64,000 nt of DNA, from assembly GCF_013122565.1 (NCBI RefSeq), contig NZ_CP053258.1; one strand, given 5' to 3'. Of this stretch, positions 1,725 to 4,880 are shown one piece after another. The notes below the pieces were generated by a model, which was not told the origin of the DNA, ran no database searches, and saw only the letters and a program-made list of their open reading frames with translations. How positions within the stretch are numbered: position 1 is the stretch's first letter; each line of letters opens with the position of its first letter. Origin of the DNA: Escherichia coli (GTDB taxonomy: Bacteria > Pseudomonadota > Gammaproteobacteria > Enterobacterales > Enterobacteriaceae). A program made the position numbers and the translations under genes.

Positions 1725-1767
1725 GCCGCGGCAATATTTATTAACCACTCTGGTCGAGATATTGCCC

Positions 1768-3234
1768 ATGCTACGTATCGCTAAAGATGCTCTGACGTTT
1801 GACGACGTTCTCCTCGTTCCTGCTCATTCTACCGTTCTGCCGAATACTGCTGACCTCAGCACCCAGCTGACGAAAACTATTCGTCTGAATATCCCTATGC
1901 TTTCCGCAGCAATGGATACCGTAACGGAAGCGCGCCTGGCTATTGCTCTGGCTCAGGAAGGCGGTATCGGCTTTATCCACAAAAACATGTCCATTGAACG
2001 CCAGGCAGAAGAAGTTCGCCGTGTGAAAAAACACGAATCTGGTGTGGTGACTGACCCGCAGACTGTTCTGCCAACCACGACGCTGCGCGAAGTGAAAGAA
2101 CTGACCGAGCGTAACGGCTTTGCGGGCTACCCGGTCGTTACCGAAGAAAACGAACTGGTGGGTATTATCACCGGTCGTGACGTACGTTTTGTGACCGACC
2201 TGAACCAGCCGGTTAGCGTTTACATGACGCCGAAAGAGCGTCTGGTCACCGTGCGTGAAGGTGAAGCCCGTGAAGTGGTGCTGGCAAAAATGCACGAAAA
2301 ACGCGTTGAAAAAGCGCTGGTGGTTGATGACGAATTCCACCTGATCGGCATGATCACAGTGAAAGATTTCCAGAAAGCGGAACGTAAACCGAACGCCTGT
2401 AAAGACGAGCAAGGCCGTCTGCGTGTTGGTGCAGCGGTTGGCGCAGGTGCGGGTAACGAAGAGCGTGTTGATGCGCTGGTTGCCGCAGGTGTTGACGTTC
2501 TGCTGATCGACTCCTCTCACGGTCACTCTGAAGGCGTTCTGCAGCGTATCCGTGAAACCCGTGCTAAATATCCTGATCTGCAAATCATCGGCGGCAACGT
2601 GGCAACAGCTGCAGGTGCACGCGCTCTGGCAGAAGCTGGTTGCAGCGCGGTTAAAGTCGGTATCGGCCCTGGCTCTATCTGTACGACTCGTATCGTGACT
2701 GGCGTAGGTGTTCCGCAGATCACTGCCGTTGCTGACGCAGTTGAAGCGCTGGAAGGCACAGGTATTCCGGTTATCGCAGATGGTGGTATTCGCTTCTCCG
2801 GCGACATCGCCAAAGCTATCGCCGCTGGCGCAAGCGCGGTAATGGTGGGTTCCATGCTGGCGGGTACTGAAGAATCTCCGGGTGAAATTGAACTCTACCA
2901 GGGCCGTTCTTACAAATCTTACCGTGGTATGGGCTCTCTGGGTGCGATGTCCAAAGGTTCTTCTGACCGTTACTTCCAGAGTGACAACGCTGCCGACAAA
3001 CTGGTGCCGGAAGGTATCGAAGGTCGCGTAGCCTATAAAGGTCGCCTGAAAGAGATCATTCACCAGCAGATGGGCGGCCTGCGCTCCTGTATGGGCCTGA
3101 CCGGCTGTGGTACTATCGACGAACTGCGTACTAAAGCGGAGTTTGTACGTATCAGCGGTGCGGGCATTCAGGAAAGCCACGTTCACGACGTGACCATTAC
3201 TAAAGAGTCCCCGAACTACCGTCTGGGCTCCTGA
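1768..3234 (+). CDS. guaB: IMP dehydrogenase
   Basis: ORF 1699..3234 trimmed to the ATG at 1768 ([21 protein letters not shown]...); 488 aa; tandem CBS domains and catalytic [10 protein letters not shown] loop recognisable. Confidence 0.95.
1973..1981 (+). promoter_or_regulatory. Consensus DnaA box (TTATCCACA) inside the 5' part of guaB
   Basis: Exact 9-mer TTATCCACA about 205 nt into the guaB coding sequence; gua operon regulation by DnaA is reported in the literature. Confidence 0.45.
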
Positions 3235-3302: not shown

Positions 3303-4880
3303 ATGACGGAAAACATTCATAAGCATCGCATCCTCATTCTGGACTTCGGTTCCCAGTATACTCAACTGGTTGCGCGCCGCGTGCGTGAGCTGGGCGTTTA
3401 CTGCGAACTGTGGGCGTGGGATGTGACAGAAGCACAAATTCGTGACTTCAATCCAAGCGGCATTATTCTTTCCGGCGGCCCGGAAAGCACCACCGAAGAA
3501 AACAGCCCGCGTGCGCCGCAGTATGTCTTTGAAGCAGGCGTACCGGTATTCGGCGTTTGCTATGGCATGCAGACCATGGCAATGCAGTTGGGCGGTCACG
3601 TTGAAGCCTCTAACGAACGTGAATTTGGCTACGCGCAGGTTGAAGTCGTAAACGACAGCGCACTGGTTCGCGGTATCGAAGATGCGCTGACCGCAGACGG
3701 TAAACCGCTGCTCGATGTCTGGATGAGCCACGGCGATAAAGTTACCGCTATCCCGTCCGACTTCGTCACCGTAGCCAGCACCGAAAGCTGCCCGTTTGCC
3801 ATTATGGCTAACGAAGAAAAACGCTTCTATGGCGTACAGTTCCACCCGGAAGTGACTCACACCCGCCAGGGTATGCGCATGCTGGAGCGTTTTGTGCGTG
3901 ATATCTGCCAGTGTGAAGCCCTGTGGACGCCAGCGAAAATTATCGACGATGCTGTAGCTCGCATCCGCGAGCAGGTAGGCGACGATAAAGTCATCCTCGG
4001 CCTCTCTGGTGGCGTGGATTCCTCCGTAACCGCAATGCTGCTGCACCGCGCTATCGGTAAAAATCTGACTTGCGTATTCGTCGACAACGGCCTGCTGCGT
4101 CTCAACGAAGCAGAGCAGGTTCTGGATATGTTTGGCGATCACTTTGGTCTGAACATTGTTCACGTTCCGGCAGAAGATCGCTTCCTGTCAGCGCTGGCTG
4201 GCGAAAACGATCCGGAAGCAAAACGTAAAATCATCGGTCGCGTTTTCGTTGAAGTATTCGATGAAGAAGCGCTGAAACTGGAAGACGTGAAGTGGCTGGC
4301 ACAGGGCACCATCTACCCTGACGTTATCGAATCTGCGGCGTCTGCAACCGGTAAAGCACACGTCATCAAATCTCACCACAACGTGGGCGGCCTGCCGAAA
4401 GAGATGAAGATGGGCCTGGTTGAACCGCTGAAAGAGCTGTTCAAAGACGAAGTGCGTAAGATTGGTCTGGAGCTGGGCCTGCCGTACGACATGCTGTACC
4501 GTCATCCGTTCCCGGGACCAGGCCTTGGCGTTCGTGTTCTGGGTGAAGTGAAGAAAGAGTACTGTGACCTGCTGCGCCGTGCTGACGCCATCTTCATTGA
4601 AGAACTGCGTAAAGCGGACCTGTACGACAAAGTCAGCCAGGCGTTCACCGTCTTCCTGCCAGTACGTTCCGTTGGCGTAATGGGCGATGGTCGTAAGTAT
4701 GACTGGGTTGTCTCTCTGCGTGCTGTCGAAACCATCGACTTTATGACCGCACACTGGGCGCATCTGCCGTACGATTTCCTCGGTCGCGTTTCCAACCGCA
4801 TTATCAATGAAGTGAACGGTATTTCTCGCGTGGTGTATGACATCAGCGGCAAGCCGCCAGCTACCATTGAGTGGGAATGA
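3303..4880 (+). CDS. guaA: GMP synthase (glutamine-hydrolysing)
   Basis: 525 aa; [41 protein letters not shown]...; glutamine amidotransferase domain plus ATP-pyrophosphatase SGGVDSS motif; 68-bp gap after guaB indicates an operon. Confidence 0.96.

Follow-up and report, generated by a model that had tools for sequence, protein, structure and literature searches.

A perfect DnaA box inside guaB of Escherichia coli is probably a by-product of the codons for Phe-Ile-His-Lys

The perfect DnaA box located inside guaB in the 64,000-nt stretch of E. coli DNA analysed here (the window) is best read as a by-product of the codons for the peptide Phe-Ile-His-Lys (FIHK), a site that can bind DnaA when naked, has low occupancy in the cell and plays no significant regulatory role; we give this reading a probability of about 0.6. 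The most likely origin of the box is the requirement of IMP dehydrogenase for Phe-Ile-His-Lys at residues 69–72, common codons for which would yield the DnaA 9-mer by ordinary usage. As naked DNA, a single consensus box can presumably bind DnaA in vitro, as has been reported for the identical K-12 sequence. In the cell, the box would be a lone one within a heavily transcribed gene, with no partner 2–3 bp away, so that its occupancy by DnaA would be low or transient. Such a box may add little or nothing to the regulation of guaBA and would be at most one of many weak titration sites, its own regulatory effect being presumably negligible. The published evidence is split, in vitro binding speaking for the site and in vivo occupancy against it.

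The box, TTATCCACA, occupies positions 1973–1981 (+) on the coding (non-template) strand of guaB and corresponds to NC_000913.3 2633857–2633865 in K-12. In a pattern search of both strands it matched the DnaA consensus at 9/9 positions and was the sole perfect DnaA 9-mer in the 64 kb, both strands counted. The gene itself (1768–3234, +, with ATG at 1768 and the stop ending at 3234) encodes an IMP dehydrogenase of 488 aa plus stop, which contains a full-length Pfam IMPDH domain (E = 1e-162) with two CBS domains, and it carries the guaB label in 5,425 of 5,426 complete E. coli genomes. The box begins at nucleotide 206 of the guaB coding sequence, i.e. 205 nt in, and both the pattern search and the coordinates agree with the earlier note, which had placed an exact 9-mer at about this distance. 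Bases 1960–1989 read GGC GGT ATC GGC TTT ATC CAC AAA AAC ATG, in which the codons TTT ATC CAC AAA (1972–1983, +) encode Phe69-Ile70-His71-Lys72 of the conserved IMPDH motif GGIGFIHKN, and the box comprises positions 2–10 of those 12 bases, in the reading frame t/TT ATC CAC A/aa. The FIHK-containing IMPDH peptide occurs in many phyla.

Upstream of the gene, an A/T-rich UP-like stretch of PguaB (about 1676–1692) and its −10 hexamer TATAAT (1719–1724, +) were read from the sequence, and a UP element has been described (PMC2885671). The box is inside the transcribed region, about 250 bp downstream of this hexamer. The gene order xseA (230–1606, −, divergent from guaB), guaB and guaA (3303–4880, +) matches that of K-12, and guaA is the downstream gene of the guaBA operon, which means that any roadblock in guaB would hit guaA too. 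A weak DnaA-like 9-mer, TTATACAGA (1715–1723, −; 7/9), overlaps the −10 hexamer. Husnain & Thomas 2008 described a DnaA site overlapping the guaB core promoter, and TTATACAGA is probably this site and the one that older papers call the ‘promoter DnaA box’. A relaxed-consensus 9-mer, TTTTTCACA (2022–2030, −; 7/9), lies 41 bp downstream of the box in inverted orientation and is consistent with chance. These two sites and a further weak box at 1741–1749 (+) were considered and set aside, as they are at chance level and none stands at double-box spacing.

The 9-mer is the guaB intragenic DnaA box already published for K-12 (Tesfa-Selase & Drabble 1992, Mol Gen Genet 231:256; 1996, Eur J Biochem 241:411). 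The paper of 1992, a genetic one, is reported to show DnaA-dependent repression of gua, and that of 1996, a biochemical one, specific binding of DnaA to the guaB box; both are cited by all the later papers on guaB and DnaA that we retrieved. The site is the same as in K-12, at the same position in the gene and on the same strand, and no difference was found in the site itself, the host genome being of a slightly divergent Escherichia/Shigella-like lineage. Over 66 bases centred on the box, the window shares 100% identity with MG1655 and with 4,969 of the 5,422 matching E. coli genomes, and over the whole gene the window guaB is 97.5% identical to that of K-12, with one amino-acid change, E7D, distant from the box. 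Moreover, the box is present in every Escherichia sequence examined, namely the window, K-12, E. albertii and three more E. coli, of which one is divergent; within so shallow a clade, retention of the box is not informative. About 7% of E. coli genomes differ in the 25-nt core around the box. In two such variant genomes that were examined, AAC is replaced by AAT (Asn73, window position 1986) five bases downstream of the box, and this common polymorphism probably explains most of these core variants. No natural variant without the box was found in the two core-variant genomes, and the box is essentially fixed within E. coli.

A single perfect box in a sequence of this length is close to what chance provides. 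In shuffled windows that preserve dinucleotide composition, 0.46 perfect 9-mers are expected per window against the one found, and 40 of 100 shuffled windows contain at least one, which upholds the caution of the earlier note that a single occurrence is not strongly significant on its own. Its estimate of one perfect 9-mer per 130 kb per strand has to be corrected, since 4^9 = 262,144 puts the expectation at one in 262 kb on a single strand and at one in 131 kb when both strands are counted. The background count of similar sites that the note had proposed gives one perfect box, five matches to the relaxed consensus TTWTNCACA (5.1 expected) and 15 one-mismatch 9-mers dispersed over the window, all at chance level. 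Thus, no frequency of DnaA 9-mers above chance was found in the 64-kb window, either for the perfect or for the relaxed consensus.

Given the peptide FIHK, the box arises whenever Phe is encoded by TTT, Ile by ATC and His by CAC, and the common codons TTT-ATC-CAC-AAA spell tTTATCCACAaa. When the three codons of the box are left out, the window guaB uses TTT for 4 of 8 Phe, ATC for 21 of 33 Ile and CAC for 8 of 9 His, from which the probability that FIHK spells the box is about 0.26; it increases to about 0.4 when the preference for TTT in Phe codons that precede Ile is taken into account. With each listed species' own guaB usage as the reference, ATC (48 observed, 46.8 expected) and CAC (58 observed, 56.3 expected) occur as often as predicted at their positions, and TTT occurs 78 times against 48 expected. 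This preference is not confined to the site: in the window, TTT makes up 36 of the 47 Phe codons ahead of Ile, and its share in this context is 69% in all long ORFs of the fetched loci. In the five conserved Phe columns of guaB, the share of TTT follows the next base, at 0.78 where this is A, about 0.6 where it is G and 0.12 where it is C. The TTT excess matches a general context rule and is not site-specific. We also considered an apparent excess of boxes over the expectation from gene-wide codon usage (27 observed, 11 expected), and rejected it as evidence of selection because it comes entirely from TTT at Phe69 and is explained by the preference for TTT before A or an Ile codon.

Two related observations concern Phe codons in general. 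In the window and the fetched loci (L001–L120), the choice of Phe codon tracks the next base, TTT accounting for 64% before A, 66–70% before G and 37–42% before C. At the conserved Phe403 of guaB, which is followed by C, only 12% of species use TTT among the matches listed.

In a codon-neutral scan for the peptide GIGFIHKNM, with one genome per species (GTDB representatives), at least 120 species were recovered; those listed span Gammaproteobacteria, Burkholderiales, Bacteroidota, Bacillota, Chloroflexota and others, and the sample is one without Salmonella, Klebsiella and Shigella. Among the matches listed, 30 of the 120 species that share the peptide (25%) carry the perfect box, against 24.8 carriers predicted when the three codon frequencies are multiplied (permutation P = 0.05). 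This slight excess was traced to an association of ATC with CAC (odds ratio 2.2), which is to be expected for two codons ending in C when related genomes have similar GC content. Within Enterobacterales, again among the matches listed, 10 of 29 carry the box and the other 19 are without it despite an identical peptide: all five entries labelled Enterobacter have TTTATTCAC, and Pseudescherichia, Superficieibacter and Edwardsiella have TTTATCCAT. One Pluralibacter locus (L072) has the box and another (L070) does not, likewise one genome of Pseudoalteromonas luteoviolacea (L057) and not a second (L053), and 6 of the 10 Vibrio among the listed matches carry it. Even within genera, close relatives have gained or lost the box.

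Conservation at the level of single codons was measured in 23 full-length Enterobacterales guaB genes with 381 conserved codons. Ranked by third-base identity with the window, codons 69, 70 and 71 fall at the 96th, 67th and 50th percentile, respectively, and the three-codon block 69–71 at the 79th percentile of 250 guaB blocks. TTT at codon 69 is thus somewhat more conserved than most third positions, and the CAC codon, from which the CAC in the CACA end of the box derives, shows average synonymous conservation only. Synonymous conservation of the box beyond coding and codon usage was not found in either sample (at least 120 species; 23 Enterobacterales guaB), from which we infer that the box is not under selection.

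Binding in the cell has been examined by ChIP-seq of SPA-tagged DnaA in MG1655 (PMC11317965), in which 16 bound regions were reported. The earlier note had named DnaA ChIP data as a check, and these published data are negative: no association of DnaA was detected within guaB, and the authors consider guaB to be probably outside the DnaA regulon. According to the same study, DnaA occupies only 13 of the genome's 32 perfect boxes, a second box 2–3 bp off is needed for binding, and the guaB site is missing even from the 2,427 best double-box matches (PMC11317965). The in vivo bound double boxes at purH, polA, nrdA, DARS2, datA and oriC share the perfect 9-mer TTATCCACA with guaB and differ from it in their second box, which stands in the same orientation 2–3 bp off. 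When we scored the partners from the table of that paper, those at bound sites mostly had 5–8/9, with two at 4/9, whereas the four candidate positions in the window at a distance of 2–3 bp from the guaB box had 1/9, 1/9, 1/9 and 4/9 matches to the consensus; no same-orientation partner box was found among them. The lack of a double box at guaB is therefore a matter of degree, since the weakest partners at bound sites also have 4/9. Nor was a box cluster of the datA or DARS type found, the surroundings within 60 bp holding one perfect box plus opposite-strand 9-mers of 7/9 and 6/9. The ChIP-seq was carried out during fast growth, as pointed out by Olivi et al. (PMC12371093), and a single study of this kind could miss a transient or condition-specific roadblock. 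In a separate line of evidence, the proteomes of datA/DARS mutants showed no change for most members of the reported DnaA regulon (Olivi et al. 2025, PMC12371093).

The main alternative is that DnaA bound to this non-template-strand box, about 240 bp past the point where guaB transcription starts, blocks the elongating RNA polymerase and lowers guaBA expression, thereby coupling GMP synthesis to the level of the initiator. This is the model of Tesfa-Selase & Drabble, whose work is cited in PMC11317965 among the examples of DnaA as a roadblock to RNA polymerase; the earlier note's suggestion that an intragenic roadblock would fit is to that extent a hypothesis already in print, and its remark that repression of gua by DnaA had been reported is borne out by reviews and papers that list gua or guaB as DnaA-repressed. 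Such listing in reviews favours a roadblock, as do the identity of the sequence context to that of the K-12 site, at which DnaA is reported to bind specifically, and the retention of the box in all Escherichia sequences examined. There is also a precedent in the asnC terminator upstream of mioC, where DnaA/box complexes are reported to block RNA polymerase (Schaefer & Messer 1988, 1989), and where the DnaA box stands in the path of the polymerase just as the guaB box does; this block is the mechanism proposed as a model for a box inside a gene. The likeness has limits: the asnC/mioC site is located between genes and adjoins oriC, whereas the guaB box is a lone one inside a coding sequence, and the mioC region is bound and has a double box in the table of PMC11317965, whereas the guaB box is not detectably bound.

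A function as roadblock finds no support in the remaining evidence, in which the ChIP-seq signal within guaB is absent (PMC11317965), the partner box is lacking, the codons are ordinary, and the box is not conserved across Enterobacterales, missing as it is in 19 of 29 with the same peptide among the matches listed and built on a CAC codon of average conservation. Moreover, mutations that shift DnaA-ATP or titration left the reported DnaA regulon largely as it was (PMC12371093). There is no terminator-like structure near the box either; a promoter/terminator scan found no intrinsic terminator-like site in 1550–2250. The simple consensus promoter scan also misses PguaB, which has a poor −35. 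Schaefer and Messer are said to have found in 1989 that the block of transcription by a DnaA box has an orientation requirement. Weighing these points, we regard a roadblock that represses guaBA as doubtful. A narrower version, in which Escherichia retains the box as a roadblock that trims guaBA transcription under certain conditions, appears very unlikely to us. If true, the box would be occupied only at high DnaA-ATP or low guaB transcription, for example in slow growth, at stationary-phase entry or under purine excess; the supply of GTP would then be linked to the replication initiator, and ChIP-seq under one condition would miss it.

Two further readings dispense with repression of transcription. 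In passive titration, the box would have no role in gua and would be one of a few hundred chromosomal boxes that buffer free DnaA, as in the initiator-titration model. A perfect consensus box belongs to the highest-affinity class, and Olivi et al. 2025 (PMC12371093) report chromosomal titration of DnaA, to which boxes at DnaA-regulated genes could contribute as well. However, the enrichment of boxes lies around oriC, and guaB is not among the four regulon genes in the box-dense region (PMC12371093); measurable ChIP-seq occupancy is absent (PMC11317965), as is a signal of selection on the box, and the contribution of one box among hundreds would be negligible. We consider titration quite unlikely as the explanation of this box. 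The box might also act in RNA, as guaB mRNA carries UUAUCCACA, a possible ‘rDnaA box’ bound by DnaA of the kind proposed for the his leader. The location of the box on the coding strand would allow this, and one paper proposes RNA DnaA boxes (PMC10989985); the same paper saw no DnaA–RNA interaction in vitro and calls the evidence inconclusive. There is likewise no sign of RNA structure at the site, and neither an Rfam family at gathering score nor a tRNA gene was found in the whole 64 kb (1–64000). An RNA element is extremely unlikely.

The by-product reading carries a caution, in that a perfect transcription-factor consensus inside a gene can follow automatically from a conserved peptide and ordinary codon usage. 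For example, FIHK spells tTTATCCACAaa with a probability of roughly 0.25–0.4 in this genome, and among the matches listed about a quarter of the sampled bacteria with the motif have the perfect box. As a discovery the site is of little importance, because it has been in the literature since 1992. What is added here is modest, namely an independent evolutionary argument that agrees with the ChIP-seq view of guaB as probably not a direct target of DnaA, and it suggests that regulon lists still naming guaB deserve reserve. The box has the sequence that defines a DnaA box, and it fails the functional in vivo tests that were run, being without a partner box and without conservation beyond coding.

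Some features of the surrounding DNA were observed in passing. The window and the E. coli xseA-guaBA...ppk-ppx...hyfR region are collinear, and in a listing drawn from 5,426 complete E. coli genomes the best full-length matches reach only 98.8–98.9% identity (window 1–25000 and 1500–2500); the source is an Escherichia/Shigella-like lineage without close representatives in this set. Substitutions between the window and K-12 guaB are unevenly distributed, with 0 at coding nucleotides 61–287 (window 1828–2054) and 41 at nucleotides 288–1329, nearly all of the latter in third positions; this could reflect recombination mosaicism or a stronger synonymous constraint at the 5′-end. An antisense stop-free ORF of 471 aa with a GTG start (1771–3186, −) spans nearly all of guaB; it probably reflects the codon bias of guaB and is not a gene.
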